Assembly (NCBI GenBank): GCA_963664815.2
Contig: CAXXHB010000003.1
Coordinates: forward strand, 2,496,001 to 2,560,000
Length of the DNA stretch: 64,000 nt
DNA from: Spirochaetota bacterium
GTDB lineage: Bacteria > Spirochaetota > UBA4802 > UBA5550
Direction: 5' to 3'
The notes beneath the pieces are model-generated. The model was not told the origin of the DNA, did not search any database, and saw only the letters and a list, made by a program, of their open reading frames with translations. This document shows positions 29,051-63,358 of the stretch, one piece after another (within the stretch, counting starts at the first letter, position 1; every line of letters begins with the position of its first letter). Both the position numbers and the translations under genes were made by a program.

Positions 29051-29092
29051 CAGTTTTTCAGGCAGCTACGTTAAGATTCCTGTAAGTTATGT
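29051..29092 (+). repeat. Composite element copy A (right terminus only)
   Basis: GGCAGCTACGTTAAGATTCCTGTAA|GTTATGT matches the common right end. Confidence 0.75.
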
Positions 29093-29162
29093 GAATTGAC
29101 CTTTAAGTATATTCAATTCCTCAAAGTACACACATGTACTTTGAGGAATGTTTCCTGCAATA

Positions 29163-29681
29163 TTACTTGATTACCAACTGGCCACATGCAGCTTTTATTG
29201 ATGTTCCCAGGCTTTGCCTTATTGTAACTTTAACATTATTTTTTTCAAGCCTTTGTTTAACCTTCTTCAGGTATTCATCAGCTGCTGATTTAAACTCATT
29301 AGATTTTTCTCCATTAAATTTCAGCAAATTCATAACAACATTTTTATTTGAAAACCATTTTGAGAGATTTTCAATATCAGCTTTTCTATCATTAATACCG
29401 GGCAGCAGCAGATAAGCTACAGATATAGATTTTTTATGTCTTCTTCCATATTCCATCGCTGATGCAATGACTTCATTAATATTATACTTAGACATTCCTG
29501 GTATTAAATAATCTCTTGTTCTTTGATCTGTTGCATGTAATGAAAGAACAAGTTGTATTTTAAGATGCTCTTCCTTCAGTGATTTTAATTTATCCGCTGG
29601 ACCTACTGTTGAGATGCTGATTCCATCTGTAGGAAAGTTTAATCCATTACGATCTCTAAGAATATGAATTGATTTGATCAA
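29163..29681 (-). pseudogene. C-terminal half of an RlmN/Cfr-family radical SAM methyltransferase
   Basis: ISTVG, LSLHA, YLLLPGIND, IKAACGQL present; CxxxCxxC and MGMGE absent. Confidence 0.8.
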
Positions 29682-29850
29682 TTCGGAATTGTTTGTCCAC
29701 GCATTAAAGACGGGCAGGCAGACAATTGCAGTATCAGTTTACAGGTTAAACTGCAGTATCCGGAAAAATCATTGATTACATATGACCTTCCCGCTATCTT
29801 TCAGTCACCTATCTTTGTACGGGCAAAGATAAGGGCAAATACTCTCCCGC

Positions 29851-31227
29851 TTATTTCACCGCCGCCGGGATGACTATCCCTATGTTATTTGATGCTGCGT
29901 TTTCCCTTACCTTTATCCAGATATAATAATCCCCGGGCTTAAGCCCTTCGGTTGATATATTCAGCATCACACTGCTGCCGTCTGAACCGGCATCCCCGGA
30001 CTGCCTGGATGCGACTACCCCCCTGTCGTCGATAAATTGCGCAATCCATTTTAAATCTTTTTTAAGATTCGAGGTATCGTTCAAAAACACCGCATAAACT
30101 GTATTATTTTTCAGCTGACCGGGGATGGTTTTATCCGGAGAGTTTTTCTGCGTGAATGTTATGGACTTAACAGCCGCATTTACTGCGGATGTATTAATGC
30201 CGTTTCCGAGAACTGAAGCTGTTTTAAGTATATTCCCGGCCTTTGAGGTTTTCGATGTAAGATAGACAGGCATGTCTATGGTAATCTTCCCATCCCCCTT
30301 CTTATCATAAAACCACATCCTGACTGAATATCCGGTACCCTGTACAAGCGGTTGAGACATCGAAAGAGATATCGACATCGAGCTGAAGTTCATGGCAGGT
30401 AAGCCCATAGCCTCTTTATAGAGGTCGTCCACTCTCCCGAGTTCATTTCCGCTGCTGTCATGCAGCGAGAAACCGGCTCCGAGGAACACATCCCCCTTAC
30501 CGTCCTTTACAAAGTTTATCGGTTCTGTAAGTTTTACTGCGAATTCCTCCCCTATACCTATCTCATTCCCTGTTACGTATTCATTCTCTTTTTTTGTCAT
30601 GATGTTGAAGTCTTCAAAGGATATCCCCTTTAATACAAACACGGCGCCGGTAAAGGGGTCTATGCGGATGCTGCCCATACCGCGTCCGGATGGTTTTTCC
30701 CCGGTAAGAACCCACAGGCATTCTGCAGATCTTGCGTTCTTCCTGGCACCTGTATTCCCAAGTTCGTCTGCTCTTTTGTAATCAGAGCACGCGCTATCGC
30801 TACGGTTAAGCTTCCTGTAACAATCACCGCGGTACAGCCAGAAAATGGAATCTTTCGGGTTAAGCTCGATGCATTTTGTATAATCCTTTTCAGAGAGGGC
30901 GTACTGCTCTGTATTGTAATAGCAATCACCTCTTTTTTTATAAAAACGGTAATTCCCCGGTTCCAGTTCTATCGCTGTTGTGTAATCACTTATCGCATCG
31001 GGGTAATTCTTCATCGCGAAGAATGAATCCCCCCTGTACCAGTAGCCCTTCACTCTGTTCGGATCCATGCTGATTGCCTTGCTGAAATGTTTTACTGCTT
31101 CATTGTAGTTTTGGGAAACGTAAAACGTATCCGCCATTTCAATGATCGTATCGTACTCATCAGCCCGGCAGATATCTGCCGCCAGAGTAAATGAAATTAA
31201 AAAAACCAGTGTCATCGGTATTTTCAT
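29851..31227 (-). CDS. Exported TPR-repeat protein
   Basis: Signal peptide, 4 TPRs, beta-rich C-terminus. Confidence 0.8.
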   Translation of the reverse strand: MKIPMTLVFLISFTLAADICRADEYDTIIEMADTFYVSQNYNEAVKHFSKAISMDPNRVKGYWYRGDSFFAMKNYPDAISDYTTAIELEPGNYRFYKKRGDCYYNTEQYALSEKDYTKCIELNPKDSIFWLYRGDCYRKLNRSDSACSDYKRADELGNTGARKNARSAECLWVLTGEKPSGRGMGSIRIDPFTGAVFVLKGISFEDFNIMTKKENEYVTGNEIGIGEEFAVKLTEPINFVKDGKGDVFLGAGFSLHDSSGNELGRVDDLYKEAMGLPAMNFSSMSISLSMSQPLVQGTGYSVRMWFYDKKGDGKITIDMPVYLTSKTSKAGNILKTASVLGNGINTSAVNAAVKSITFTQKNSPDKTIPGQLKNNTVYAVFLNDTSNLKKDLKWIAQFIDDRGVVASRQSGDAGSDGSSVMLNISTEGLKPGDYYIWIKVRENAASNNIGIVIPAAVK

Positions 31228-31385
31228 AATCTCTCCTCTTAATTATTAAGCTCCTTCTGACGGAGCGGATTTTTTATAAAGACCCATTTATCATACTTTT
31301 AACTGCAGCCATCCCCTGGTGGAAACCCATGGTTTCCCGGAACTGCGGTTCCACAAGCCATACAATATTAACAGCAGGTTTTGTT

Positions 31386-31608
31386 TTCGCGGGCAAATGA
31401 ACCATAGAGGATAATTTTTTTAACGGACATTGTCTGTTTAACAATGTCGGCATACTGTTTTACTTTTTCAATAACTGCCTGATCCATATGAATAAATCCT
31501 CAGTCTGTTTTAATAAATCGATGCAGATTTGATCTGTCAGTATTTTAAGCAATTCATCCCTGTCCTGCGGATAACGGGCCTGAATATTCAAAGGCATTAA
31601 GCGGTTAT
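31386..31608 (-). pseudogene. HEPN-MNT toxin-antitoxin remnant (HEPN C-terminus plus nucleotidyltransferase N-terminus)
   Basis: Manual translation: ..PLNIQARYPQD..FIWIRQLL overlapping MDQAVIEKVKQYADIV..KIILYGSFARE. Confidence 0.7.
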
Positions 31609-38261: not shown

Positions 38262-38262
38262 C

Positions 38263-38486
38263 AGCTTTTGAGATTTTGCATAAAATCGCCATTTACAGTC
38301 TCTCCGCTGATTGGAGAAATATTTATTTTACAGGATTATTATTTTTTCCGGTAAAATCACCGGATTATTACTGCATGTTATTTCAAAGACCGGAAGAAAA
38401 CAATGTTAAAATTCCTATGACTGTTCTGAGTATAATCGAAACATGTTCTGCCCGATGCCAGCGATTTCGTTCAACAAAAGTTATGC
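38263..38486 (+). repeat. Composite element copy B (oriIS part, attC-like hairpin deleted)
   Basis: GCATAAAATCGCC...CCGGTAAAATCACCGG...AAATTCCTAT...GTTCAACAAAA|GTTATGC. Confidence 0.9.
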
Positions 38487-41567: not shown

Positions 41568-41569
41568 TA

Positions 41570-43341: not shown

Positions 43342-43854
43342 CTATTTTTTAAGTAATTCATATTTACAAAATAGAGAAATTTTACAACCCGAATTAACCT
43401 CTATTTTTAAATTATCAGTATAATCATTCTCAAGGTCAGTTTTTACTCCTACCAGATAAATTCCATTTGCATTATTAGATTTGGCAATTTCTATAGCTTT
43501 TTTATCAATTTCTTCAAACGCGATATTTGTTTCTGCTTTAACTAATTTTATAAGAGTAGAAGTTTCTGTTGTAACGATCAAATCGATATAACTTCTTTTA
43601 TACTTTTCTAAATCCAGTGGATAAATAACTTCAAAATCTCCTATTTTTTTATATTGAGAATAATTGTTTTTCTGGACATTAACTACTGAATCGATTTTAG
43701 TTCTTTTTTCTTTATCGCTAATTATTAAATTTTTTACAATACAACCTTTAATTGACAACGCATCATCTTTATAGTTCTTGCAATTTTGCGAAGAGCAATT
43801 ACCTGAAACAACAATAGATAATAGAATTATTGAGATTATAATTTTTTTCTTCAT
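43342..43854 (-). CDS. Hypothetical exported cargo protein (intact copy)
   Basis: 170 aa; near-identical 5' part at 52190-52501. Confidence 0.75.
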   Translation of the reverse strand: MKKKIIISIILLSIVVSGNCSSQNCKNYKDDALSIKGCIVKNLIISDKEKRTKIDSVVNVQKNNYSQYKKIGDFEVIYPLDLEKYKRSYIDLIVTTETSTLIKLVKAETNIAFEEIDKKAIEIAKSNNANGIYLVGVKTDLENDYTDNLKIEVNSGCKISLFCKYELLKK

Positions 43855-43910
43855 AAGCTCCTTACATTAACCAGCCATGCTATGTATAACTATTGTAAAT
43901 TTTCTTACTA

Positions 43911-43980
43911 GTCTGCCAGGTCAGAAAGCTCGCCCCCCTCTTTCCCCTCATAAGAACCGTACGTGAAAGTTTTACCACAG
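43911..43980 (-). repeat. Composite element copy C (group II intron-like DVI and half of DV)
   Basis: GTCTGCCAGGTCAG...GAACCGTACGTGAAAGTTTTACCACAG, then truncated. Confidence 0.85.
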
Positions 43981-44128
43981 AACAACATAAACATTTTTAT
44001 TAATTTCATATCAACAGAAAAAGTCAATATCAATCTTGACATAGCAGGAAGTATAGGGCAATAGTTTCATATTCATAATAAAACGTGTGATGAAGAGTCA
44101 TTCATTAATAAATATTCCGGAGGAGAAT

Positions 44129-44707
44129 ATGCATTTTAAAATAAAATCAGCAAGTCTAATAGCGGCCCTAATCTTGATCTTTGGAGCAGTTGCTTTCTTT
44201 GCAAATGAAAGCACCGCGCAGGGAAAGACATACAAGATAGGAGATAAAGGCCCAGCCGGAGGTCGGGTATTTTATGACAAAGGTAATTCTGATGACGGCT
44301 GGAGATATTTGGAAGCAGCACCAGTTGATCAGAGCGTTAAATCAGAATGGGGTTGTTATGAAAAATCAATACCCGGAGCACAAGGTACAGCCATAGGGAC
44401 TGGTAAAAGCAACACGGAGGCTATAGTTAAAAGTTGTGGAGAAGCAAAAATAGCAGCTGAATTATGCACTGCATACAGAGGCGGCGGAAAAAGTGACTGG
44501 TTTTTGCCATCTAAAGATGAGCTTAACCGAATGTATATGAATTTGTATAAAAACGGTGTTGGCGGTTTCGTTGGTACCCTCTATTGGAGTTCGTCTGAGA
44601 ACGATGCTGGCAGCGCCTGGGGGCAGAATTTCTACAGTGGCGCCCAGGGCGACGGCAATAAGGACAACACCTTCAGAGTTCGGGCTGTCCGGGCTTTTAT
44701 CAATTGA
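44129..44707 (+). CDS. Exported DUF1566/Lcl protein, candidate DGR target 1
   Basis: GGAGGAG RBS; GGKSDWFLPSKDEL, YWSSSE, RVRAVRAF; paralog of 60618-61205. Confidence 0.85.
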   Translation: MHFKIKSASLIAALILIFGAVAFFANESTAQGKTYKIGDKGPAGGRVFYDKGNSDDGWRYLEAAPVDQSVKSEWGCYEKSIPGAQGTAIGTGKSNTEAIVKSCGEAKIAAELCTAYRGGGKSDWFLPSKDELNRMYMNLYKNGVGGFVGTLYWSSSENDAGSAWGQNFYSGAQGDGNKDNTFRVRAVRAFIN

Positions 44708-44847
44708 AATATTTAACTATTTTTACTTTCCCGCTGTAGCGGGTTCAAAAATTTTTAATGGTATCCTATGGCGCTTACTAAACTCAAGGATGAATTGCAA
44801 TAAGGTACGAGCTTAAAATATCAGCAGGAAATATCCGAATACATTGA

Positions 44848-47591: not shown

Positions 47592-47619
47592 ACGACGCCG
47601 CTCATGTCGACGCAGCTCA

Positions 47620-47650: not shown

Positions 47651-48189
47651 ACAGGGGGTCACTGAGCCAGCCGAAGTGCAAACATCCTGTTTGCCCGACA
47701 GAACCGCCTGAGCAACAGCCCGACACAATATTAATGGATTTTAAATTACCGGATTTATAATTTCAAGAATAATTCGTATGTAGAAATTTGAATAAATAAA
47801 CAATTGATTCTTTATAACAACCAATATATCTGCTTTTAAATTACTGTTAAACGATACTTTCCGGAATAAATTATCAGTATTTCTTAATCATCAGAATAAA
47901 AGTATCCATTCATGATCTTCCTACATCCACCACAATCATAATACATCAATATGCAGATAATAATCTACAACCACTCTGCTTCGCCGGAGGTGAACGATAC
48001 CTCACCGGTTCAAGAATCTCTTTCACTACAAGCCTTCCGGTTTTGCATGCAGGGCAGCATGAAAGGTTTTTACCTGTGACGCGCAGATAGATTTAACTCC
48101 ATGTCTGCGGTATACTTTCATTCTTCTTTTGAATTTCGTAAAACTCGCGGCATGCCGCAACAGCCTTCTTTTTTTTCCGGTGAGAGAGA

Positions 48190-48397
48190 ATTCCGAAGTA
48201 CCAACAGGGCAAACAATCTTGCCCTTTGCCGGATGTTTCTTGGTCAGCCTCTGGCGGAGCAGGATGAGCGGAGCAAAGAGCTTCTTGAGGATACAGCTTT
48301 CCTGGTCTGGAAATATTTCAGGATTGATATAACTCTCTGCAGGGAGTGTGGAAAAGGACACATTCATTATATCCATGGCTTGTCGACTTACGGTTAG
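48190..48397 (+). pseudogene. C-terminal remnant of an IS91-family (Y2/HUH) transposase
   Basis: NRANNLALCRMFLG...IDITLCRECGKGHI resembles the IS91-family C-terminus (L..CR..LG...D...CP.C.KG); directly followed by the oriIS-bearing repeat. Confidence 0.6.
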
Positions 48398-48797
48398 CTG
48401 TTATAAAGAAGTATATCCGCACAGATTTAAAAACTGTTTTATAGAGAGGATAAGTATGCCCGGAGCTTTTAAGATTTTGCATAAAATCGCCATTTACGGT
48501 CTCTCCGCTGACTGGAGAAATAATTATTTTACGGGATTATTATTTTTTCCGGTAAGATCACCGGATTATTACTGTATATTATTTCAAAGACCGGAAGAAA
48601 ACGGTATTCAAATTCCTGTTATGAGTATTCTGAGTATAATCGAAGCATATTCTGCCCGATTCCAGTGGTTTCGTCCAACAAAAGTTTTAACATGGCTGCT
48701 GTCTGAAGATTGAAATTATCTATCTAATATTTTTATACCACTGATAAAGACCCGCGGTTCTTTTGGGCAGCTACGTTTAGACTTCTATAAGTTATGT
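48398..48797 (+). repeat. Composite element copy E (right half, still attached to the transposase remnant; attC-like 48673-48797)
   Basis: Same sequence blocks as copy D; ends CTATAA|GTTATGT. Confidence 0.9.
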
Positions 48798-49282
48798 GCA
48801 GTACTACCGCGTTTTTTAAAAAATCTGGGAATAAATCTTCCTGTATCCTTACAATATTTTTCATACTCGTTAGGGAAAATAGTTTTTAAATCTTTTTCTT
48901 CTTTTATAATTAGCAAATGCCAAATAGGGTGTAGAATCAATGCCCAAATAATAAATATCCAATTATTTAATAAAAATGCCAAACCAAAATTAAAAAAAGT
49001 TAAAAATGCTGCATACAAAGGATGCCGAAAATATCTCAACGCTCCTGTAGTTATTAATGCCTTACCTCGTAATTTTGGATTTAATGAAACAAGACTCCAA
49101 GTAATTATTATAATGCTAACAATAGTTAATAACACAAAAATAGACACAGGAACAAAATCTTGATTATTAAACACTTGAGGAATATTTAACAAATTTTTTA
49201 AATAAAATGAGATTATTAATAATGCTAAACTTATTAATAATCCAATAGGCCCCGACCCAAATATTCTATTGAAATTATTCAT
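48785..49282 (-). CDS. Isoprenylcysteine carboxyl methyltransferase family membrane protein (cargo)
   Basis: LITTG..RYFRHPLY, EEKDL..F..EYEKY...TGRFIP; stop codon supplied by the element end. Confidence 0.88.
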   Translation of the reverse strand: MNNFNRIFGSGPIGLLISLALLIISFYLKNLLNIPQVFNNQDFVPVSIFVLLTIVSIIIITWSLVSLNPKLRGKALITTGALRYFRHPLYAAFLTFFNFGLAFLLNNWIFIIWALILHPIWHLLIIKEEKDLKTIFPNEYEKYCKDTGRFIPRFFKKRGSTAHNL

Positions 49283-49317: not shown

Positions 49318-50084
49318 GTCTGCCAGGTCAGGGAACCCGTACCCCCTTTTCCCAATAAGAACCGTATGTGAAAGTTTCACCACAGGCACTTCCTCCGGAC
49401 GCCCTTTATGCGGCTCAAGCCGTCTAAAGCTGATTATACAATCAGCCGCTGTTATCTGATTTTATTCTCATTTTTCTATAGCAGAAATAATCAGAATCTT
49501 CTTTTAAAAATGGGCTCCTGTCAAGACATATCATTCTGTGCCGTACAATTTTAATGTGTCCCGCAGTAAAGAGAATCTCCTCATCAGAACATAAAGTTTG
49601 AGTCTCTTTTCCTATGCGTTTTACAGTACCGGTTTTTAAGCCATAAAGAATTTTTCATCGTATGTCTGGAACTGCCCCATCTCCATAGAGCCTGAAAAAG
49701 AACAGTATTGGAATTTTTAAAAGGATTCCTTTTAAAACCATTCCCCGGAGCTTTTGAGACGTTGAATAAAATCGCCATTCACGGTCTATCCGCTGACTGG
49801 AGAAATAATTATTTTATGTGATTTTTATTTTTTCCGGTAAAATCACCGGATTTTTACTGTATATTATTTCAAAGACCGGAAGAAAACGGTATTCAAAATC
49901 CTATTTATACTTGTGCTTAGTATTATCGAAGCATGTTCTGCCCGATGTCAGTGGTTTCGTCCAACAGAAGTCTTAACATAGATGCTGCTTGAATTTTAAA
50001 ATTATCTGCTTAATATTTTTATACCGCTAATAAAGATTAGCGGTTTTTTTGAGGCAGCTACGTTAAGACTTCTATAAGTTATAT
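49318..50084. mobile_element. Composite element copy F (complete non-autonomous form, 760 bp to the G|TT)
   Basis: Intron DV/DVI 49318-49416 (-), maturase remnant ~49470-49745 (-), oriIS-like 49891-49904, attC-like 49959-50084. Confidence 0.88.
49470..49745 (-). pseudogene. Decayed C-terminus (domain X/D) of a group II intron reverse transcriptase/maturase
   Basis: VLFQALWRWGSSRHTMKNSLWLKNRY, and after a frameshift HIKIVRHRMICLDRSPFL..DSDYF; copy H reads RHPMKNSLWLKNRYF..LDRNPFL. Matches the LWRWAKRRHP.K...W...RYF / IVRH......NP.....YF pattern. Confidence 0.78.
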
Positions 50085-50432
50085 GATTTTTTTGGTCCCT
50101 TCATTACACGAAAATCCTCTATTTTTTATTCTTTTTTCTTTTTTATCTTTAACAAATTCAAGTTTATAATGTAACACTGAAAGTATCGGTGTCAGAGTAT
50201 TTAAGCTGATGTTAGTACTTTTTCCTGATCTTAGATTTTGAATCATTGTTGGAGAAACACCTGATTCTTCTGCTAGTTTTCTGACAGAAATTTTATTTTC
50301 TTCCATAGCTTCAATAAGAAATTCAGAAATAAGAAATTTTTCATATCCTTTTTCAAAATCAGCTTTCCATTCCGGGTCTTGCATGAGTTTATCAAATGTA
50401 CTTAATTGTTCGGGGGCTTTATTCTTCTTCAT
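50079..50432 (-). CDS. XRE HTH antitoxin
   Basis: ISVRKLAEESGVSPTMIQNLRSG; stop TAA lies within ATATAAC at the element junction. Confidence 0.88.
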   Translation of the reverse strand: MKKNKAPEQLSTFDKLMQDPEWKADFEKGYEKFLISEFLIEAMEENKISVRKLAEESGVSPTMIQNLRSGKSTNISLNTLTPILSVLHYKLEFVKDKKEKRIKNRGFSCNEGTKKII

Positions 50433-50811
50433 AATATTTTCCTTCTTTAACTCTTCTTATATAACTTTCTTTATAATTTAATGCTTTAATCTTTTCGTTT
50501 TCAGGTAATTTATCTGATTTTTTCCGAAATGCGTTTGTTACTATGATTGTTTTACCTGTAACGAAGAATGATAAAAATCTTTCCGGTTGAGGTTTAAATG
50601 CGTAAATTTTATCTCCTTCATATCGGAATTTCGTAATGTCATTGATTTTTCCATTATCACCCATTCTCTTGAGAAGGTAGAAAACTTTCTTTTGCATTTC
50701 TGTATCAAGTTCTAATAAATAGTCATAAGCTTGACTATTTCCGGATTCATCATAATACCATTCGATGGTATAAATTTTGCCTTTGTATGCGATGTAGTCT
50801 TTTTTACTCAT
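50419..50811 (-). CDS. RelE/ParE (Gp49-like) toxin
   Basis: IYAFKPQPERFLSFF..IIVTNAFRKKSDKLP; overlaps the antitoxin. Confidence 0.88.
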   Translation of the reverse strand: MSKKDYIAYKGKIYTIEWYYDESGNSQAYDYLLELDTEMQKKVFYLLKRMGDNGKINDITKFRYEGDKIYAFKPQPERFLSFFVTGKTIIVTNAFRKKSDKLPENEKIKALNYKESYIRRVKEGKYYEEE

Positions 50812-51002: not shown

Positions 51003-51138
51003 CCAGCGGTTTCATCCAACAAAAGTCTTAACATAGCTGCCATCTGAAGATTAAAATTATCTGCTTAATATTTTATACATCTGATAAAGAATGACGGTTC
51101 TTTTGGGGTAGCTACGTTTAGACTCCTATAAGTGGGGC
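51003..51138 (+). repeat. Composite element copy G (attC-like hairpin only)
   Basis: ATCCAAC..AAGTCTTAACATAGCTGC...GTAGCTACGTTTAGACTCCTATAA|GTGGGGC. Confidence 0.88.
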
Positions 51139-51154
51139 GCAGTATATTGAAATA

Positions 51155-51364: not shown

Positions 51365-52189
51365 CTCGAGTTAGGCGTTTTTTGGACATAGCTACACCAC
51401 GAGTTTTAGTTTTTTATAAATGTCCCTCTTGGAGACACCCTTTTTATACATTATAATCACTTGATCAACGGACTCCCGCTTCTTCATTATTTTGAAATAC
51501 TGTCGAGATTTCCCAAGACTCTGTTCATTGTTAGCAACTCTCAATGATTCAAGTTTATATCCGTACTAAGGATGAACATGCTATATCCGGTTTTGTTTTA
51601 AATACTTCTCCGGATTCAGTTTCCACTTTCTCATTTAGATAAAACCGGAAATCATATGGAAAAGATATATCCCCTGATCTATAATGACTTGTCACCAAGC
51701 TGTGACCATATACCGTTCTGCCTTTTGAATGAGAATAATGCCACCCGAGACTTTCTATCTTCTTCGGTTTTCCCGGCTTCTCTATCACAGTATCATCTAT
51801 TATTAAAAAGCCTGTCCCGTTTTTCTTAGCGATACATTTTAAAAAATTCCTGTTAACTCTTAAAAGATCTTTACAGGTCCAAGCTGTATCTCTTATAAAC
51901 TTTATATCATTACTAACATCTCTTGTGTCAACCTGAATGGAGTTGATACTTGAGATTGTATGACGACCATCATATTCTATTATCCCTTTCAGCATCTTAG
52001 TAAAATGCCTCATTTGCGGTTTTGAAAAAATTTCTTTCGCCGCTGTAAAGTACTTGTCTTCTGTAATCTGTTGTTTATTTTTTTATCCATGTTAAGTCGT
52101 TTTTAAAATACTATTCATAATGGGGCTTAAAATTAATACAATTTTTTGCCCCATTATCTTTTTTCTTTTAAAAAAACGCCTAACTCAAG
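51365..52189 (-). mobile_element. IS701-like element, internally deleted, with both terminal IRs (copy 2)
   Basis: IRs CTCGAGTTAGGCGTTTTTT and AAAAAACGCCTAACTCAAG; transposase fragment 51555-52013 (FLIIDDTVIEKPG). Confidence 0.8.
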
Positions 52190-52501
52190 TAATTTTATAA
52201 GAGTAGAAGTTTCTATTGTAACAATCAAATCGATATAACTTCTTTTATACTTTTCTAAATCCAGTGGATAAATAACTTCAAAATCTCCTATTTTTTTATA
52301 TTGAGAATAATTGTTTTTCTGGACATTAACTACTGAATCGATTTTAGTTCTTTTTTCTTTATCGCTAATTATTAAATTTTTTACAATACAACCTTTAATT
52401 GACAACACATCATCTTTATAGTTCTTGCAATTTTGCGAAGAGCAATTACCTGAAACAACAATAGATAATAGAATTATTGAGATTATAATTTTTTTCTTCA
52501 T
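52190..52501 (-). pseudogene. Truncated duplicate of 43342-43854
   Basis: Near-identical up to TLIKL, then cut by the IS end at 52189. Confidence 0.85.
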
Positions 52502-52557
52502 AAGCTCCTTACATTAACCAGCCATGCTATGTATAACTATTGTAAATTTTCTTACTA

Positions 52558-53474
52558 GTCTGCCAGGTCAGGAAGCTCGCGCCTCCTTTCTCCCATAAAA
52601 ACCGTACGTGAAAGTTTTACCACAGGCACTTTCTCCGGTCGCCCTTCATACAGCTCAAGCCGTCTAAAGCTGATTATACAACCAACCGCTGTTAGCTGTT
52701 TTTATTCCCGTTTTTCTATAGTAGAAATAATCAGAATCTTCTTTTAAAAATGGGTTCCTGTCAAGACTTATCATTCTGTGCTGCACAATTTTAATGTGTC
52801 CCGCAGTAATGAGAATCTACTCATCAGAACAGAAAGTTTAAGCCCCTGTTACCTATGCGTTTTAAAGTACCGGTTTTTAAGCCATAAAGAATTTTTCATC
52901 GGGTGTCTGGAACTGCCCCATCTCCATAGAGCCTGAAAAAGAACAGTGTTGTGATTTTTAAAGAATTCCTTTTAAAACCATTCCCCGGGAGCTTTTAAGA
53001 CGTTGAATGAAATTGCCATTCACAGTCTATCCGATGATTGCATAAGTACTTCATTTATAATTATTATCAGATAATCTAATAATTGTCTGGACCCTGATTT
53101 ACCTGATTACAGGATGGTCAGGATTCACCTGCCAGTTCCGGAGACTAAATCATGATAATCTTTTAATCCTTTAATCCCGATTCAGATAGCTGTAGTATCA
53201 GGTTTTTACAAGATTTTTTGTTTTTCCGGTAAAATCACCGGATTCTTACTGCATGTTACTTCAAAGACCGTGAGAAAACTGTATTCAAATTCCTGTTATG
53301 ACTATTCTGAGTATAATCGAAGCATGTTCTGCCCCGATATCAGCGGTTTCGTCCAACAAAAGTCTTAACATAGATGCTTCCTGAATTTTAAAATTATCTG
53401 CTTAATATTTTATACATCTGATAAAGAATGACGGTTCTTTTGGGCAGCTACGTTAAGACTTCTATAAGTTGTAC
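52558..53474. mobile_element. Composite element copy H (complete form with internal insertion, 910 bp)
   Basis: Colinear with copy F; extra palindromic insert near 53041-53210; attC-like 53351-53474. Confidence 0.88.
53084..53188. repeat. REP/MITE-like imperfect palindrome nested in copy H
   Basis: TGTCTGGA..GATT repeats ... AATC repeats..TTCAGATA. Confidence 0.6.
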
Positions 53475-53908
53475 GTCGTTTGATTTTATTTTATTGACTC
53501 CATTAGAATGTAAAAATATTTACCTTCCCTAGTTTTATGTAATTGGTACCATGCTTCTAATGTTTTTTCTTTCATTACACCAATTTTTTTAAAAACTTCA
53601 TAAGAAAATTCCAATGGAGCCAATCCTGTAGCAGTTATTAAATTTTCATCAACAACTACAGGATCATTCACATAAAAATTAATTCCTGTATAATCGGAAC
53701 AAAACATTTTTAGAACCTCTTTGTCATTACTCGTATGCTTTCGATTATCCAGCAGTCCTTTTTGCGCTAATGCTATTGTAGCTCCACAAATTGCAGCGAC
53801 TACAACTTTTTTATTAATCACTTCTGCTACTATATTTAATATTTGATCTTCCCCTGATATAGTGGACATTAAGTTAAGCCGAAAATATAATAAATTTGGA
53901 GGCTTACA

Positions 53909-54199
53909 ATGTCAGAGAGAAGTAAATACAGCCCGGAATTTAAGAAAGAGGCTGTAGAATTATTAAGAACCAGCGGAAAGACATCACTTGAAATAGCGAA
54001 TGATCTTGGGATTAAAAGAGATAATCTATTGCGCTGGAATAGGGAAATTGAAACAGAGGAAAGGAATTCCGGGACAATAACAATAAATCCTCAGGATAGT
54101 GAAGAAATTAAACGACTCAAGAAGGAAATGTTGATTCTTAAGCAGGAGCGTGACATTCTAAAAAAGGCTCTGGGCATATTCTCGAAACCACAAGAATGA
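53909..54199 (+). CDS. IS3 OrfA
   Basis: KYSPEFKKEAV HTH, ERDILKKA; A-AAA-AAG slippery site near 54160. Confidence 0.93.
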   Translation: MSERSKYSPEFKKEAVELLRTSGKTSLEIANDLGIKRDNLLRWNREIETEERNSGTITINPQDSEEIKRLKKEMLILKQERDILKKALGIFSKPQE

Positions 54200-55065
54200 A
54201 ATATGAATTCATCAAGGAACAGAGTACTGAATTTCCAGTATCGAGGATATGCCAGATTATGGATGTGAGTAAAAGCGGTTATTATGCCTGGCTGAAAGCT
54301 CCAAAGAGTATAAGAGGGCTTGAAAATGAAATACTATTGGAGAGGATAAAATCATCACATGAATCAAGCGGAGAGAGCTATGGCAGCCCCAGAATTCATC
54401 AGGATTTACTTGAAGAAGGTATTTTCTGCGGAATACATAGGGTTGAGAGGCTGATGAATGTGAATGGGATTCATGCAAAGACAAAGAAAAAATTTAAGGC
54501 AACCACTGATTCGGGTCATTCTTTGCCAGTGTCTGAGAATATACTAGACAGGAATTTTACTGTTGAAGAGAAAGATAAAGTATATGTGTCAGATATAACC
54601 TATATCTGGACATTAGAAGGCTGGCTGTATTTATGTATAGTAATGGATTTATTTTCCAGAATGATAGTCGGATGGTCAATGGCAAATCATATGAGAGCTG
54701 AACTTGTTGAAGATGCTTTTAACATGGCCTGTATGAGAAGAAATCCGGGCCCTGGCCTGATATTCCATTCTGATAGAGGTAAACAATATGCCAGCAAATC
54801 CTTCAGGGAATTACTTGAATCAAAGAAATGTATTCAGAGTATGAGCAGGAATGGCAATTGCTGGGATAATGCCTGTGCTGAATCTTTATTTCATTCGATG
54901 AAAACAGAAGAATTTTATTTTAATATTTACAAAACAAGGAATGAGGCTAAGAGAAGTATCTTTAGATATATTGAAATATTTTATAACCGTAAAAGAAGGC
55001 ATTCACATCTGGGTTATAAAAGTCCGGAGATTTTTGAAAGATTAAATCTTAAAATAATGGCTTAA
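54196..55065 (+). CDS. IS3 OrfB DDE transposase
   Basis: SDITYI, FHSDRG.QY, NCWDNACAES; ATGA overlap with OrfA. Confidence 0.95.
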   Translation: MKYEFIKEQSTEFPVSRICQIMDVSKSGYYAWLKAPKSIRGLENEILLERIKSSHESSGESYGSPRIHQDLLEEGIFCGIHRVERLMNVNGIHAKTKKKFKATTDSGHSLPVSENILDRNFTVEEKDKVYVSDITYIWTLEGWLYLCIVMDLFSRMIVGWSMANHMRAELVEDAFNMACMRRNPGPGLIFHSDRGKQYASKSFRELLESKKCIQSMSRNGNCWDNACAESLFHSMKTEEFYFNIYKTRNEAKRSIFRYIEIFYNRKRRHSHLGYKSPEIFERLNLKIMA

Positions 55066-55750
55066 CAAAGTGTCCATTTTTTCGGGGGAACATCAATTTT
55101 TTGATTATTTTCATCCATCCAAGTATCGGCTCCCGGTAAAATGAGTAAGTCATTTTCCTTAAATTCAACATCAGCGACATCTTTATCTGGAGTAATAATA
55201 ATCCCTCCCATCGTTTTTATAGGTTTTAAGTTATCGCCTATTTTTATTAATGATATTTTTTCTTTGCTTTTATCTAAATATCTACCACTGTTTAATTCAG
55301 CAATTATAAATCCGATTTCCCAATCAGCTAATGTATCTAATATATACACATAGCAATTTCTACATTTGGTTTCTTTATTCATTTTTCCTCCAATAAATCC
55401 TTTCTTTATTGTCCTGGCCAATTCTTCAGCTTGAACAAAGGCTAATCCAATTATTGTTACAAACAAATAAGTTTTAGCTTCATAATTTTATTCTCAGGCG
55501 GTTTTGTTCAAGCTGTGTTATGTGCTGAAAACACGATTACAAAAAGTTTTGTGTAAGCGAAACGAATGTTGAGCTTGAATGCACTTATTTTACTATTATT
55601 CATTTTTTATTATATTCTTAATCTATTTTTTGTCTTAACTGGCAGAAACCGTTGTAATATACTCCATCATGATTTAATGGTTTGTAAGCGTCAAATTAAC
55701 CCCATCTTGAAAAAAGATCAATGATATATTACAATACCCTTCATTAAAAA

Positions 55751-56427: not shown

Positions 56428-56450
56428 AAATTAATTGCAATCATGAGGGC

Positions 56451-58046
56451 ATGTTATATGATGTACTCATGATTGCAATGCCCGACAACCTTCCTGATGA
56501 TGTAAACGAGCTCAAGAAAATTATTTCAAACCTGGCAAATGAATACGAAAAAGAAATTCAATATCTTAAAGAGAAAAATAAATTTTTACTTCAAAAGTTA
56601 TTCGGCCGTAAAAGCGAGAAGCTGACTCCCGATGATATTCTACAGGGCCGGTTGTTTGATGAATCAGAATTCAGCTCTGATGAGAATGAAAACGCAGAAG
56701 ATGATTCACCTGAAAAGCTAACCGTTGTTTCATCTCATACACGCCGGAAGACAGGAAAGAAACCTCTTCCGGAATCACTCCCTCGTGTTGATGTTGTACA
56801 TGATATCTCCGAAGAAGAAAAACAGTGTGCCTGCGGGTGCGAGATGAAACGCATTGGGGAAGAAGTTTCTGAAAAGCTTGATATGATTCCTGCGAAAATC
56901 CAGGTGCTTCGTCATATCCGATATAAATATGCCTGTAAAAACTGTGAAGGGAGCGAAAGTGATGAAGCTCCGGTAAAGATTGCGCCATTGCCTCCGCAGA
57001 TTATACCGCAGGGGATTGCAACACCAGGACTTGCGGCATGGGTGCTGGTGAGTAAATTCTGCGATGCGCTTCCTTTTTACCGGCAGGAAAAGCTTTTTTC
57101 CCGGATTGGTGTTGATATTTCACGAGCGACTTTTTGTAACTGGTCCATTATTACACATAGAGGCAGTGAACGGCTGCTCGAACTGATGTGGAGAGATATT
57201 CTTGCGTCTCGGCTTGTTGGCATGGATGAGACGCCGGTGCAGGTTATGAAAGAGCCAGGCCGCAAAAATACAACAAAGTCATACATGTGGCTGTTCCGGG
57301 GTGGAGAAGAAACCCGACCAATTGTGATATTCCGGTATGCTCCGACCCGGGGATCGGAATTCATAAACAGTGAATTTGCGGATTACGAAGGTGTCATCCA
57401 GACCGACGGCTATCAGGGATACAAAACTCTGGGTAAAAAAGAAAAAGTAACACATGCTGTATGCTGGGCACATGTCCGGAGAAAATTCATGGAAGCGATG
57501 AATGGCACCAGTCAGTCTTTTTCACATTCTATAGTATCGATGATAAAAACGCTTTATGATGTAGAAAAAGAAATACGTGAGAATAAATATAACCATGAAG
57601 AGATCAGACAGGTGCGCAATGATAAATCACGTCCAGTAGTGGAAAAGATAGAACAGCAATTGAAAAAGCATGTTCACAGTATTGCACCGGGAAGTCTTGC
57701 CGGTAAGGCAATCTCATACTCATTAAAGCTGTGGCCCCAGTTGTGTGTATATCTTGACAACCCTATTATTCCCATCGACAATAATCATGTTGAAAATGCA
57801 ATCCGCCCTTTTGTGGTGGGACGAAAAAACTGGCTTTTTTCCGGTAGCCCGCGCGGTGCCCATGCCAGTGCCGGATTATATAGCATAATAGAAACGGCAA
57901 AGGCAAATGGTCTTGAGCCATACTGGTATCTTAGATACCTGTTTGAAAAATTACCTGCCTGTACAAGTGATAATGAAATCCGGTCAATTATGCCGAATAG
58001 AATTGATCCTGAAGTTATCAGTAAACTCAGAGGTGGGGTTAATTAA
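56451..58046 (+). CDS. tnpC: IS66 TnpC DDE transposase
   Basis: FGRKSE, zinc finger, MDETP, QTDGY, CWAHVRRKF, IDNNHVENAIRP, GRKNWLF. Confidence 0.95.
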   Translation: MLYDVLMIAMPDNLPDDVNELKKIISNLANEYEKEIQYLKEKNKFLLQKLFGRKSEKLTPDDILQGRLFDESEFSSDENENAEDDSPEKLTVVSSHTRRKTGKKPLPESLPRVDVVHDISEEEKQCACGCEMKRIGEEVSEKLDMIPAKIQVLRHIRYKYACKNCEGSESDEAPVKIAPLPPQIIPQGIATPGLAAWVLVSKFCDALPFYRQEKLFSRIGVDISRATFCNWSIITHRGSERLLELMWRDILASRLVGMDETPVQVMKEPGRKNTTKSYMWLFRGGEETRPIVIFRYAPTRGSEFINSEFADYEGVIQTDGYQGYKTLGKKEKVTHAVCWAHVRRKFMEAMNGTSQSFSHSIVSMIKTLYDVEKEIRENKYNHEEIRQVRNDKSRPVVEKIEQQLKKHVHSIAPGSLAGKAISYSLKLWPQLCVYLDNPIIPIDNNHVENAIRPFVVGRKNWLFSGSPRGAHASAGLYSIIETAKANGLEPYWYLRYLFEKLPACTSDNEIRSIMPNRIDPEVISKLRGGVN

Positions 58047-58517: not shown

Positions 58518-58590
58518 TCCGGTAAAATTACCGGATTTTTACTGTATGTTATTTCAAAGCGACCGGGAGAAAACGGTATTCAAATTCTAT
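58518..58590 (+). repeat. Composite element copy I (short, ends at the oriIS-like motif)
   Basis: CCGGTAAAATTACCGG...GGTATTCAAATTCTAT abutting the cyclase stop codon. Confidence 0.8.
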
Positions 58591-60033: not shown

Positions 60034-60375
60034 ATCTGCCAGGTCAGGAAGATCGCGCCTCCTTCCCCCCATAAATACCGTACGTGAAAGTTTTACCACA
60101 GGCACTTCCTTCGGTCGCCCTTTTTACGGCTCAAGCCGTCTAAAGCTGATTATACAACCAACCGCTGTTAGCATTTTTATTCCCGTTTTTTATATCAGAA
60201 ATAATCAGAATATTCTTTTAAAATGGGTTCTGCCCGATTCCAGTGGTTTCGTCCAACAAAAGTCTTAACATAGATGCTTCCTGAATTTTAAAATTATCTG
60301 CTTAATATTTTATACATCTGATAAAGATTAGCGGTTTTTTTGAGGCAACTACGTTAAGACTTCTATAAGTTATAT
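60034..60375. mobile_element. Composite element copy J (both ends, centre deleted, 335 bp)
   Basis: Intron-like end 60034-60132 fused at GTTC to the attC-like end 60251-60375; oriIS missing. Confidence 0.88.
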
Positions 60376-60617
60376 GAAGGCGGCGCGCTATACAGCAACC
60401 AGTCGCAGCAATACAAGGAAGTATTGCTGCGTTTATAAGAAACCGATTTTACCACAGAACAACATAAACATTTTTATTAATTTCATATCAACAGAAAAAG
60501 TCAATATCAATCTTGACATAGCAGGAAGTATAGAGCAATAGTTTCATATTCATAATAAAACGTGTGATGAAGAGTCATTCATTCATTCATTCATTAATAA
60601 ATATTCCGGAGGAGAAT

Positions 60618-61205
60618 ATGCATTTTAAAATAAAATCAGCAAGTTTAATTGCGGCTTTAATCATGATCTTTGGAGCAGCAGCTTTCTTTGCAAATGAAAG
60701 CAACGCGCAGGGAAAGACATACAAGATAGGGGACAAAGGCCCTGCCGGAGGCTGGGTATTTTATGACAAAGGTAATTCTGATGACGGATGGAGATATTTG
60801 GAAGCAGCACCAGTTGATCAGACTACAAAAGATGGTGCAGAATGGAGTTGCTATAAAAAATCAATACCCGGCGCACGAGGTACAGCCATAGGGACAGGTA
60901 AAAGTAATACAGAGGCTATAGTTAAAAGCTGTGGAGAAGCAAAGATAGCAGCTAAACTATGTACTGCATACAGAGGCGGCGGAAAAAGTGACTGGTTTTT
61001 GCCATCGAAAGATGAGCTTAATCTGATGTATGCAATTTTGTGTGTAAAAGGTGTTGGCAGTTTCGCTGATAACCATTATTGGAGTTCGTCGCAGAACCTT
61101 GCTGGCCTCGCGTGGTACCAGAGTTTCGGCAATGTCCTCAAGAAGGGCACCATCAGGGAGGACAACGTGCTTAGGGTTCGGGCTGTCCGGGCTTTTAACA
61201 ATTGA
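60618..61205 (+). CDS. Exported DUF1566/Lcl protein, candidate DGR target 2
   Basis: Paralog of 44129-44707 with a hypervariable C-terminus; ends RVRAVRAF. Confidence 0.85.
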   Translation: MHFKIKSASLIAALIMIFGAAAFFANESNAQGKTYKIGDKGPAGGWVFYDKGNSDDGWRYLEAAPVDQTTKDGAEWSCYKKSIPGARGTAIGTGKSNTEAIVKSCGEAKIAAKLCTAYRGGGKSDWFLPSKDELNLMYAILCVKGVGSFADNHYWSSSQNLAGLAWYQSFGNVLKKGTIREDNVLRVRAVRAFNN

Positions 61206-61346
61206 ACTATTTAACTATTTTTCTTTTCCCGCGATAGCGGATTCAAATTTTTTTTAATGGTATCCTATGGCGCTTACTGAATTCAAGGATGAATTGCAAT
61301 AAGGTACGAGCTTAAAATATCAGCAGGAAATATCCGAATACATTGA

Positions 61347-61667
61347 AGATAAGTATATCCGGAGTTTTTGAGACGTTGCATAAAATCGTCATTTACGGTC
61401 TATCCGTTGACTGGACAAATAATGATTTTACGGGATTATTATTTTCCCCGGTAAAATCACCGGATTATTACTGCATGTTATTTCAAAGAACGGGAGAAAA
61501 CGGTATTCAAATTCCTATATATACTGTTCGATCCCAGTGGTTTCGTCCAACAGAGTCTTAACATAGTTGTTGTCTGAAGATTGAAATTATCTGTTTAATA
61601 TTTTTATACCGCTGATAAAGACCAGCGGTTTTTTGGGCAGCTACGTTAAAACTTCTATAAGTTATAT
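61347..61667 (+). repeat. Composite element copy K (oriIS-like 61505-61518, attC-like 61545-61667)
   Basis: ATTCAAATTCCTATATA; ends CTATAA|GTTATAT. Confidence 0.9.
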
Positions 61668-61728
61668 GAAGCGGCCTCTAATAAAAATATATCCGACTTG
61701 AGGCATGGACTCCGAAAGACGGCAATAA

Positions 61729-62271
61729 TTATTGTTCATAAAAAGCCGAACCACTTACAACTAATTCACATAATTTTTCTTTTATTATTTTTATTAAACA
61801 ATCCGTAGTTCTAAAGTTTAGTATCTCATTACGAGTAATAACAATTAATCTAATTCCTTCTTGAAGCGCACTTGAAATTATACTTTGAGATTGTGTAAGA
61901 TCATATTGATTTCCAGTAATCCCATTTGCAGCGATGAAAATTCCAATATCTTGAGCTCTATGTTTTACTTTTTCCTTAAACCATGAAACATCGATGCTGC
62001 CGACAGGAGATGACCAATTCTTACATTCAACCAATATTATATATGGTAAAAAAACTAAGCCACCATTGTTTTTTTCATTCCAAAACGCTACATCAATTTC
62101 TTCAGTATTATGAATGTTCATTTGGTTTCGTCTTGTTACTGAAATTCCAGGTATTTTTTCGAATAAATAGCATATTAAATCTTCTAAAGCTTTACCCTTA
62201 TGTGCGGATACTTGAGCAAGATCGCTTTGATTAAAATAATCTAAAATTTTTCTGGAGGAATAATTAGCCAT
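61729..62271 (-). CDS. Mrr-like PD-(D/E)XK restriction endonuclease
   Basis: KGKALE, EEIDV, LVECKNW..PVG, GIFIA.NG.T. Confidence 0.8.
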   Translation of the reverse strand: MANYSSRKILDYFNQSDLAQVSAHKGKALEDLICYLFEKIPGISVTRRNQMNIHNTEEIDVAFWNEKNNGGLVFLPYIILVECKNWSSPVGSIDVSWFKEKVKHRAQDIGIFIAANGITGNQYDLTQSQSIISSALQEGIRLIVITRNEILNFRTTDCLIKIIKEKLCELVVSGSAFYEQ

Positions 62272-63163
62272 TTATTCCTCCTTTATGAGCTAACGTATTT
62301 CTTTTATTCAAAATATATGATGTCAGTTCATTCGTAGCTATTAACTGAATAAATTTCTCAAGACTGAGGAATAATATTAAAGGGTAACGATTTTCATACT
62401 TTTCAAGATTATTGATTAGTATTTCTTTATAAAGAACTAGACCGAGATTCGAATTAGTTGCATTTAAATAATTATTCATTTGAGAATATATCTTAGTAAT
62501 GCTGTTGTCATTTTTAATTGTTTTTTTAAATTCAATTAAAAGTGGATTCTGAATACTTTTTTGTAACTCATCAATCCAGATAGCTAAATCGATTCCTTTA
62601 TCAATTGAATTTGAATTCGAAACACTCGTTATGTGATTAAAATTTGATAAAAAATGTTCAATGTTTTCAATAATTTCACTTTCATTCTCAATCTGATATA
62701 TTTTATTTATAAATTGATTATAATTGAATTTTTTATCAACTTTAGGAATTCTTTTTTGTTCACTTATTTTTTTAGTTTTATTTTTAATATTAAGATTATC
62801 AATAAATACATTTAAGTTAAACGATATAGCATCATAATCATTTTCATTTGCCTTAATATTCGGAAATTCTTTTAAAGTATGGGGAATATCTATATCTGGT
62901 TCATAAATAATAAAGATAGGTTTATTCATTCCTCTTGCTAAACCAAGTTCAAAATAATTATTTTGAGTAAAGTTTTTGTTTATCATCGCACAAACGAAGT
63001 CAGAAGATTTAATTAACTTTTCAATTAGCTGATTAATAGATAAACCTGGTTCAAATGATAAATCAGCAATATCAATATGATTTTCATTAAGGATGTTTTT
63101 GAGGATAAAATTATTTATATTGTTACTAGAGATTAAAAAGCATTTAGTTTTGTTATTATCCAT
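62264..63163 (-). CDS. TIR/nucleoside-deoxyribosyltransferase-like domain fused to a PD-(D/E)XK-like domain
   Basis: IKSSDFV, NNYFELGLA.G.NKPIFII; DKGIDLAIW..LLIEFK; 8-bp overlap with the downstream nuclease. Confidence 0.7.
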   Translation of the reverse strand: MDNNKTKCFLISSNNINNFILKNILNENHIDIADLSFEPGLSINQLIEKLIKSSDFVCAMINKNFTQNNYFELGLARGMNKPIFIIYEPDIDIPHTLKEFPNIKANENDYDAISFNLNVFIDNLNIKNKTKKISEQKRIPKVDKKFNYNQFINKIYQIENESEIIENIEHFLSNFNHITSVSNSNSIDKGIDLAIWIDELQKSIQNPLLIEFKKTIKNDNSITKIYSQMNNYLNATNSNLGLVLYKEILINNLEKYENRYPLILFLSLEKFIQLIATNELTSYILNKRNTLAHKGGING

Positions 63164-63228
63164 AATAATTCCTATAAATATTTTCTTTACTAACCGGGCA
63201 CGGATGCCCGGATATATTTTTTAGGCCG

Positions 63229-63358
63229 GTCTGGTAGGTCAGGGAGCTCGCGCCTCCTTTCTACCATAAGAACCGTACGAGAAAGTTTTACCACAGGCAC
63301 TTCCTCCGGTCGCCCTTCTTACGACTCAAGTCGTCTAAAGATGATTATACAACCAGCT
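63229..63358 (-). repeat. Composite element copy L (intron-like DV/DVI end)
   Basis: GTCTGGTAGGTCAGGGAGC...GAACCGTACGAGAAAG...TACGACTCAAG. Confidence 0.85.

Follow-up and report, generated by a model that had tools for sequence, protein, structure and literature searches.

Between 29 and 64 kb of a 64,000-nucleotide stretch of a Spirochaetota genome (the window; C3:2496001-2560000, within a 5.2-Mb genome of three contigs), unrelated cargo genes are separated by copies of a repeated spacer that ends in a ≈150-nt hairpin derived from an IS91-family element, here called the A-type hairpin, and an AAG|TT junction. We find that this part of the window is, on balance, most of a ≈45-kb integron-like cassette array that runs to ≈70.6 kb in window coordinates, with a 35-codon tyrosine recombinase stump and the 179-aa p185 gene at its proximal end (C3:2569660-2571578). 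We favour, with some reserve, an explanation in which cassettes are bounded at the AAG|TT junction of this hairpin and a recombinase of the type that we name TR357 serves the boundary. What the analysis establishes is how the element is built, that its hairpin is natively linked to an IS91 transposase in relatives, that a recombinase platform stands at all nine clusters, and that a cassette rule is seen in relatives and at 7 of 27 A-type junctions here. The comparison set comprises 63 other genomes of the same family (labelled G004, G006, G016 etc.). Besides the A-type we distinguish two further hairpins, the B-type of a second IS91 lineage and the C-type of ≈113 nt.

The spacer is a pseudogene chimera ending in an IS91-derived hairpin

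A repeat search returns 23 direct-repeat families between 28 and 64 kb of the window, and the 12 copy starts listed by a first-pass annotation, made from the letters of this DNA without database searches, all lie inside BLAST or nhmmer matches to the repeat (that at 48398 inside the piece 48203-48790). In all, 56 pieces in nine clusters map to a 1340-nt reference long form, C3:3208805-3210144. The same annotation named the three modules of the unit correctly, namely an intron 3′ end (RF00029, 33 bits, below the gathering score of 40), an IS91 origin end (as G016 and G050 bear out) and an attC-like hairpin (by folding); its view of them as a purpose-built non-coding unit does not survive, as the 1340-nt form still codes for 198 amino acids of transposase and gives, by deletion, the 760-nt form. 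The repeated spacer is debris, in which a group II intron 3′ stump is joined to the C-terminal half of an IS91-family transposase and the hairpin of its 3′ untranslated region (UTR). We read it as a decayed IS91 element of the kind with both a tyrosine recombinase and an HUH transposase, lying in inverted orientation to the cargo genes.

Positions 1-388 of the long form are intron-derived, and their minus strand codes for a group II intron maturase of which only the C-terminal tail is present (GIIM, 23.7 bits in one copy and 20.4 in another, with a cut-off of 23); the copies of this tail in the window are interrupted by stop codons. RF00029 aligns at 52562-52658(-) with 33 bits (E 0.0018) and at 49322-49418(-) with 19.3 bits, no match to this model in the window reaching the gathering threshold, and its alignment reveals a 27-nt insert in the loop of domain V. 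On the intron strand one end of the unit reads ...AGAC or ...AGAT and the other CTTATAG. Group II introns begin with the 5′ consensus GUGYG; neither this end nor domains I-IV is present here, the intron part running for 388 nt and then giving way to IS91 sequence. An RVT_1 domain of the stump's lineage was not found in the genome, its three RVT_1 matches being all unrelated, and the sole intact intron reverse transcriptase (RT), tried as the parent of the stump, has no significant similarity to it. Nothing suggests that the intron stump is functional, and the earlier proposal that an RT has to act on the unit in trans loses its ground.

Positions 389-1035 code on the plus strand for 198 amino acids that correspond to positions 52-180 of the Y2_Tnp profile (87.5 bits), and since only these positions are kept, these IS91 copies in the genome are remnants. 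The 760-nt form is the 1340-nt form minus positions 389-1035, ≈650 nt that are present in some genomic copies and missing from the 760-nt copies of the window. Positions 1036-1340 are non-coding, and their last ≈150 nt form a large imperfect hairpin of two nested palindromes, with DNA folding z-scores of -4.0 to -5.5 and 40 predicted consensus pairs. Genome-wide we count 33 copies with nhmmer and 29 with a covariance model; 27 of the 33 nhmmer hairpins have a scorable end (two are 3′-truncated and four lack a recognisable end), and 26 of these are followed by GTTA or GTTG, the exception being GTGG. An autonomous copy of the same IS91 element or intron, to be recognised by an IS91 transposase with an integrase or by a full intron, had been thought worth seeking; none of the same lineage occurs in the genome, whose sole full IS91 transposase is 24% identical to the fragment.

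In the available part of PMC13181058, the oriIS ends of the IS91 family are described as having one or two palindromes in a subterminal position, beside a tetranucleotide (CTTG, GTTC or GTCC) that is essential, and the elements are said to travel as single-stranded circles, with terIS often overrun. The A-type hairpin, as a putative origin end, has this layout of subterminal palindromes and adjacent tetranucleotide. Its parts also follow the order of an attC site (AAC box, spacer, stem, loop, stem, spacer, GTT box), with one A.C mismatch and no obvious bulged bases in the stem; a single pair of the inner stem covaries (C-G to U-A in 3 of 11) and occurs in mixed combinations too, which makes it uninformative.

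Only the two outer termini of the unit are fixed. The left end, GTCTGCCAGGTCAG, occurs five times in the window at no more than two mismatches, against 0.03 expected from shuffles, and a relaxed form of the motif occurs 12 times in the whole genome, with flanks that are unrelated up to the junction itself in all but one duplicated pair; a motif search places the right end, GTTAAGACTTCTATAAG|TT, in 22 copies genome-wide. The sharp, reproducible ends with differing flanks reported at first are therefore confirmed, with a qualification on the right: the first 10-20 nt past AAG are non-random and share the consensus TTRKRYGMWG among all copies and all genera examined, a flank able to pair with the left arm of the hairpin, GGTTTCGTCCAAC. 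Mapping all junctions across the genome upholds the fixed outer termini, but not fixed junctions throughout, as internal breakpoints are scattered along the 1340-nt form (68, 132, 146, 180, 200, 363, 388, 780, 929, 1023, 1036 and 1207-1213) and many copies are internally truncated. Besides the ends of the 389-1035 deletion, the breakpoints that recur are 780, where a 3′ fragment from the second IS91 lineage is joined on, 1023 and 1036, immediately past the transposase stop codon, and 1207-1213.

In relatives, the three parts of the unit (intron, transposase and hairpin) are found separately. The genome G016 has, in this order, a recombinase fragment, an intact 381-aa IS91 transposase (NF033538, 323.9 bits; Y2_Tnp and Zn_Tnp_IS91 passed) and, ≈230 nt downstream, the hairpin, a spacing as in the source genome, and the recombinase, IS91 transposase and hairpin of G050 are arranged likewise; because it follows intact transposases in these two genomes, we take the hairpin to be the native 3′ end of the A-type IS91 lineage. 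The contigs that hold the intact elements end short of the left terminus, where the A-type terIS would lie; in the source genome the left end of the unit is the intron terminus. The covariance model finds 1-2 hairpins each in 12 of the 63 relatives, against 29 in the source genome. Within the same genus, G006 has an array in which units of ≈330 nt lie between vapBC pairs; these units have an A-type hairpin at their end and carry no intron or transposase debris, which leaves the hairpin as the sole candidate functional element; the whole tripartite unit, once proposed as the module, thus gives way to the ≈150-nt hairpin, the only part that recurs in relatives.

A recombinase platform and a cassette rule

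All A-type hairpins sit in the nine clusters, on one strand per cluster, and all nine clusters adjoin a copy of p185. This gene, to which no function is assigned, has 29 full-length copies round the genome at 70-89% identity, none of them inside the window, and ≈120 nt upstream and ≈115 nt downstream of it are conserved as well (for example C3:2571042-2571578, past the right end of the window); outside the source genome we find partial homologues at 41-51% identity and one short contig at 73%. Next to p185 lies the tyrosine recombinase TR357, which is intact solely at C3:1972136-1973209, is reduced to 35-80 C-terminal codons at four clusters and to 30 N-terminal codons at a fifth, and is represented at the remaining clusters by platform DNA only. 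The stump that belongs to the array of the window lies at C3:2569660-2569764, ≈9.7 kb beyond the window end. The layout, which had been thought to be without a described precedent, is a variant of the arrays of integrons and of clusters of attC sites lacking integron-integrases (CALINs), with a recombinase platform at every cluster.

TR357 passes the cut-off of NF040815 (235 bits, cut-off 220) and fails that of TIGR02249, the integron integrase model (220.7 bits, cut-off 265), leaving model positions 180-234 unmatched; no TIGR02249 match at cut-off occurs anywhere in the genome. Its best PDB match is Vibrio IntI4 (2a3v, E 1e-44), in which the IntI-specific insert lies within residues 182-240, a stretch that has just 17 counterparts in TR357. 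The recombinases borne by IS91 elements belong to the 'integron-like' subgroup, without the IntI insert, according to the available part of 10.1101/542381. A 329-aa open reading frame at 27899-28888, considered as a canonical integron integrase beside the array, is an aldo/keto reductase.

Many genomes of the family have, as their one best match to TR357, a full-length orthologue at 42-66% identity, and C-type sites are present in 37 of the 63 relatives. In G006, where our C-type model R2 has 53 matches, C-type hairpins extend over ≈100 kb from the orthologue at the head of the run (C1:4426936-4428000, minus strand); an orthologue with a C-type array in the usual relative orientation is found in G006, G007, G045, G004, G009, G077 and G017, and the G042 orthologue adjoins C-type sites too, but on both strands. 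Cargo in the G006 array lies on the recombinase strand, with stop codons 9-57 nt from the site at its left, and its cassettes bear the integron signature, in that the sequence following GTT at a given site is the reverse complement of that preceding AAC at its neighbour. Of 27 adjacent R′/R′′ pairs, 19 show complementarity at 9/11 positions or better and 11 at 10/11 or better, compared with 8.7% and 0.9%, respectively, of 843 non-adjacent control pairs, and none of 23 same-site pairs reaches 10/11.

The source genome has six C-type sites, which share both cluster and strand with the A-type hairpins. Here, seven of the 27 A-type right ends, six of them independent, have the reverse complement of their flank (at most 2 mismatches in 14) 0.5-2.2 kb away, with ≈0.5 expected by chance over all 27 junctions, and immediately beyond each of the seven complementary flanks comes another hairpin, be it of B-type, C-type or a different kind; an eighth, 3.3 kb away and with no evident hairpin after it, is left uncounted. 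The genome also holds an intact IS91-B element, with a 418-aa transposase and a 295-aa tyrosine recombinase upstream of it (C3:3695386-3697453). The element starts with GTTGAACAAAAC... right after the GTT box of a C-type site, and the AAC arm of its terminal hairpin, GTTCTGTCCAAC, is complementary to the element start at 10 of 12 positions; given this start and this arm, IS91-B sits in the array as a cassette. Array polarity cannot be taken from the inverted-repeat rule, which is symmetric. Gene geometry, recombinase position and IS91-B placement all favour the cargo strand as the polarity of the array, and because the conservation pattern of the A-type units, with their constant arm, favours the opposite strand, we read these units as inverted relative to the resident sites and the cargo.

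Cargo is compact and abuts the hairpins. An antisense open frame of at least 60 codons ends 0-76 nt past AAG at 23 of the 27 hairpins, and cargo starts lie 10-128 nt from the left end of the next unit; a rule by which the stop codon is always embedded in the junction was tried and holds in 2 of 27 only. Among the cargo are an adenylate cyclase, a DUF4760 protein, an Mrr-like nuclease, a protein with a weak TIR-like match, a higBA-like pair and a DJ-1 gene split by an IS3 element, with IS110 and IS66 elements also within the array, and the cargo is almost wholly different among the nine clusters. Segmental duplications join 43540-43980 to 52187-52625 at 97.5% identity and 43970-45196 to 60447-61671 at 86%, and include a repeat of 987 nt at 99.8%. 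Four public runs (Logan contigs) are uninformative on excision because their contigs break at the repeats, the apparent joints being in register between repeat copies.

Further observations concern the platforms and sites. Islands of recombinase plus array lie downstream of 8-9 p185 copies, as if the p185 3′ flank were an attachment site. The interval from p185 to the recombinase gene or its stump contains tandem repeats of ≈140 nt, in as many as some six units (for example C3:1362500-1364000), and G006 has ≈400-nt tandem repeats with half C-type sites just downstream of its recombinase. Behind the recombinase stump of the 1.37-Mb cluster, a 581-aa frame contains a second RT domain (59.5 bits, C3:1364617-1365141); it belongs to neither of the two intron RT lineages and may represent cargo, in the form of an RT of the defence type. 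The sole intact group II intron of the genome (C3:3194579-3196521; a 413-aa RT, RVT_1 plus GIIM) splits a C-type site in halves. In G006 five C-type sites are split at model position 73/75, four by insertions of ≈1.5 kb and one by an insertion of ≈2.8 kb (C1:4340624-4342252, 4368232-4369843, 4371303-4372914, 4380654-4382287 and 4416894-4419793); the last of these carries an IS110-family transposase gene that is itself interrupted by an IS3 element, and these insertions in C-type sites are reminiscent of the IS1111-attC group. An IS110 copy in the source genome adjoins a B-type hairpin (C3:3687941-3689289). A toxin-antitoxin pair at C3:3687113-3687925, duplicated at 3692520-3693332, lies between an A-type and an inverted B-type hairpin; it has a 22-nt terminal inverted repeat, GTTATGCGAARGTCTGCCCCCG, and both junction boxes face the cargo.

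Proposed mechanism and rival explanations

In the mechanism that we propose, TR357, an IntI/XerA-like enzyme, would insert and remove cassettes at the GTT junction, and its one intact copy (C3:1972136-1973209) would act in trans on the array of the window. IS91 elements would enter arrays through their GTTR target, since this target is the attC core, and the IS91-derived hairpin would then have spread in the source genome and replaced most resident sites, with the intron and transposase pieces as passengers. The cassette rule predicts that a complete A-type IS91 element would begin TTGGACGAAAC. For the stump, the cleanest idea is that a once-active intron of that lineage may have homed just downstream of hairpin sites, an idea that leaves the shared fusion point of intron and transposase without account. 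Both the acting enzyme and present activity are things that we infer only. A broader generalization, which we offer tentatively and hold to be possible rather than probable, is that of a spirochaete family with integron-type arrays of up to ≈100 kb served by a recombinase without the IntI insert, in which IS91 elements with a sister recombinase are cassettes, oriIS is homologous to attC, and GTTR is the attC core. Gene capture by IS91/ISCR elements and by integrons would then be linked in mechanism and perhaps in evolution, and in the source genome the IS91-derived site would have become the main cassette boundary, at nine platform copies.

Several findings speak against the recombinase explanation. 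The notion of integron-like shuffling, present from the outset, is considerably strengthened by the cassette rule and the recombinase-headed arrays of relatives, but the complementarity is found at none of the eight A-type junctions inside the window; strict integron logic for cassettes with A-type hairpins on both sides fails in either polarity, and by hand comparison such cassettes match the constant left arm at ≈7-8 of 12-13 positions only. Judged by the asymmetry of their spacers, the A-type hairpins point the opposite way from the resident sites, which a simple attC role would not predict, and the small A-type array of G006 is 2.2 Mb away from the TR357 orthologue of that genome. Because the IntI-specific insert is missing, action of TR357 on folded hairpins is not assured. 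No excision or circle junction is seen in the public runs, which offer repeat-broken contigs only. Finally, the model does not account for the position of the left end, which in 12 copies lies exactly at the last base of the intron beside unrelated flanks.

Much of the same anatomy could be read as the product of rolling-circle transposition, in which an HUH transposase nicks oriIS|GTTR and copies leftwards to the next junction, freeing the DNA between two hairpins as a single-stranded circle; we consider this unlikely, and it is similarly doubtful that such circles re-insert 5′ of GTTR, preferably at existing hairpin junctions, and so give rise to head-to-tail arrays. In its native setting the hairpin forms the 3′ end of a gene for an IS91 transposase, its two nested palindromes followed by GTTR fit what the available part of PMC13181058 says of oriIS, the conserved block always extends leftward from the fixed right end with a variable left truncation, hairpins have a single orientation within each cluster, and an intact IS91-B transposase exists in the genome. 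However, there is no intact A-type transposase, the sole intact IS91 being 24% identical with a different inner hairpin; the hairpins are confined to recombinase-flanked islands despite the many GTTR sites in 5.2 Mb; and rolling-circle copying predicts neither compact cargo with its 3′ ends at the junction nor the complementarity at seven junctions.

Twelve left ends and at least 27 right ends fixed to the base beside unrelated flanks, cargo that is almost wholly different between the nine clusters, the same hairpin-cargo geometry in other genera, and the persistence of one intact TR357 and one intact IS91-B make it improbable that the array is an inert graveyard, that is, an old integron-type island that suffered one IS91/intron invasion, was then spread and eroded by homologous recombination, duplication and deletions at short stretches, and holds nothing mobile today, its hairpin being without a current role. 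Such decay is nevertheless consistent with the several segmental duplications that cover cargo together with element pieces, with the scattered internal breakpoints and the deletions joined, in some cases, at short shared stretches, with the IS110, IS3 and IS66 insertions nested in the array, with a TR357 that is intact at one cluster and elsewhere a stump or platform DNA, and with the mixture of left-arm and right-arm variants of the inner stem, a mixture that suggests gene conversion. We give very little credence to the whole ≈0.8-kb tripartite unit as a dedicated non-autonomous element whose ends are recognised in trans by RT, HUH transposase and recombinase. Sharp outer ends with differing flanks, the presence of the short form at five or more sites and an intron-end piece beside a higBA pair in G039, a genome of another family, would suit such an element, but its middle is a transposase pseudogene that is variably present or deleted, the arrays of relatives are made of the hairpin alone, the intron piece lacks domains I-IV and has the 27-nt insert in domain V, and the genome has no RT of the stump's lineage.

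Features of the window array and relation to known systems

All pieces of the A-type unit in the window lie on the plus strand. At the distal edge of the array, beside the aldo/keto reductase gene (27899-28888, Pfam), the leftmost remnant consists of the last ≈70 nt of an A-type hairpin with its right-flank box (29018-29095; nhmmer, model positions 77-151, and alignment); the sole Rfam match of the window at gathering threshold, a tRNA gene at 20381-20453, lies ≈8.6 kb to the left of this edge. Repeat and BLAST mapping then places an internal fragment, long-form ≈1041-1262, with IS91 3′ UTR and the left half of the hairpin at 38263-38482. A left-end fragment with the intron domain VI and V stump, long-form 1-68, occupies 43911-43980 and is followed by an Lcl_C gene unit; IS91 3′ UTR and A-type hairpin, long-form 1023-1340, follow at 44846-45197 and start directly after the lost transposase stop codon. 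A second Lcl_C gene has IS91 UTR and A-type hairpin behind it at 61345-61671, in a unit 86% identical to 43970-45196.

An IS110-family insertion sequence (46329-47594, plus strand, transposase 46464-47549, Pfam) with a 98% identical copy elsewhere in the genome precedes a B-type IS91 3′ fragment on the minus strand (47697-48200), which matches the 3′ end of intact IS91-B (C3:3695141-3695640) at 90-94% identity and is joined at 48203 to an A-type remnant, long-form 780-1340, that retains the last ≈80 transposase codons, UTR and hairpin (48203-48802). Two complete short forms are present. In the one at 49318-50090, the intron stump (49318-49732) comprises an RT C-terminal pseudogene and domains V and VI on the minus strand, IS91 UTR and hairpin span 49744-50077, and the right-flank box extends to ≈50090; the other, at 52558-53478, has an extra ≈115-145 nt within the UTR and contains the best Rfam match to domains V and VI (52562-52658, minus strand). 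The remaining pieces are a minimal solo A-type hairpin (51003-51143, long-form 1212-1340), a 70-nt UTR fragment that abuts the stop codon of the adenylate cyclase gene (58518-58587), a deleted form in which long-form 2-200 is joined to 1207-1340 at a short shared stretch (60035-60380), and a left-end fragment, long-form 1-132 (63229-63360).

Cargo genes between these pieces lie on the minus strand. A gene at 48785-49282 with a weak ICMT/PEMT-like methyltransferase match, below the Pfam cut-off, has a stop codon that overlaps the right-flank box of the hairpin to its left and a start 36 nt from the next left end. The toxin-antitoxin pair at 50079-50811 (Gp49/HigB-like, 50419-50811; helix-turn-helix antitoxin, 50079-50432) ends in a stop codon TAA that is the TTA of AAG|TTA, and the Mrr-like nuclease gene (61729-62271) is paired with a TIR-like gene whose match is weak and below cut-off (62264-63163), the two spanning 61729-63163. 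The DJ-1/PfpI gene is split into frames at 53486-53869 and 55062-55466 (minus strand) by the IS3-family element (orfA 53909-54199, orfB 54196-55065), after which comes the IS66-family element (transposase 56451-58046).

If the recombinase explanation is correct, integron-style cassette capture is possible without the IntI-specific domain, and integron searches that demand this domain would miss whole families of arrays. It would also provide a concrete bridge between IS91/ISCR rolling-circle capture and integrons, two systems that are as a rule considered separately, and one that bears on the origin of attC sites and cassettes. As the cargo (toxin-antitoxin, nuclease, TIR-like) is typical of defence islands, the arrays would then probably be a main source of strain-level variation. 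Our literature search, to which paper supplements did not belong, found no description of IS91 origin ends as attC-like arrays, nor of integron-type arrays in spirochaetes other than Treponema, which is not proof of absence; in their available parts, PMC3607928 (2013) gives Treponema as the sole spirochaete clade known to carry integrons and 10.1101/030866 lists Spirochaetes among the integron-bearing phyla with no detail.

Of known systems, sedentary chromosomal integrons and CALINs come closest, ahead of IS91/ISCR elements and, after these, group IIC-attC introns. The arrays share with sedentary integrons and CALINs a terminal tyrosine recombinase gene beside a long series of compact cargo genes in one direction, most of them poor in promoters (toxin-antitoxin pairs, nucleases and genes without known function), imperfect hairpins of ≈110-150 nt with AAC...GTT boxes, and, in G006, the complementarity of a cassette's first bases to the AAC box of the next site; with only a recombinase stump beside it, the array of the window resembles a CALIN. 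They differ from sedentary integrons in that TR357, co-oriented with the cargo, is without the IntI-specific insert and is longer by 85 aa at its N-terminus, that the platform exists in nine copies beside a 29-copy gene, and that most sites here derive from an IS91 end. Group IIC-attC introns also tie a group II intron to hairpin recombination sites in cassette arrays, and the available part of PMC3001079 describes them as inserting in the attC bottom strand, antisense to cassette genes; in contrast, the stump and the intact intron here are co-oriented with the cargo (stump and cargo both minus), and IS91 sequence separates the stump from the hairpin. With IS91/ISCR elements, those that carry a tyrosine recombinase included, we find in common the HUH-Y2 transposase, the 3′ nested palindromes next to GTTR, a one-ended truncation series and captured genes, whereas the copies here are non-autonomous stumps in recombinase-flanked islands, their end behaves as a cassette junction, and the intact IS91-B is placed in the array like a cassette. 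The pdif (XerC/D) modules of Acinetobacter plasmids are a further parallel, with short recombinase sites on either side of discrete gene modules that are often toxin-antitoxin pairs and occur in varying contexts; their sites are 28-bp duplex Xer sites in alternating orientation, unlike the ≈150-nt hairpins of one orientation that lie here beside a dedicated recombinase.

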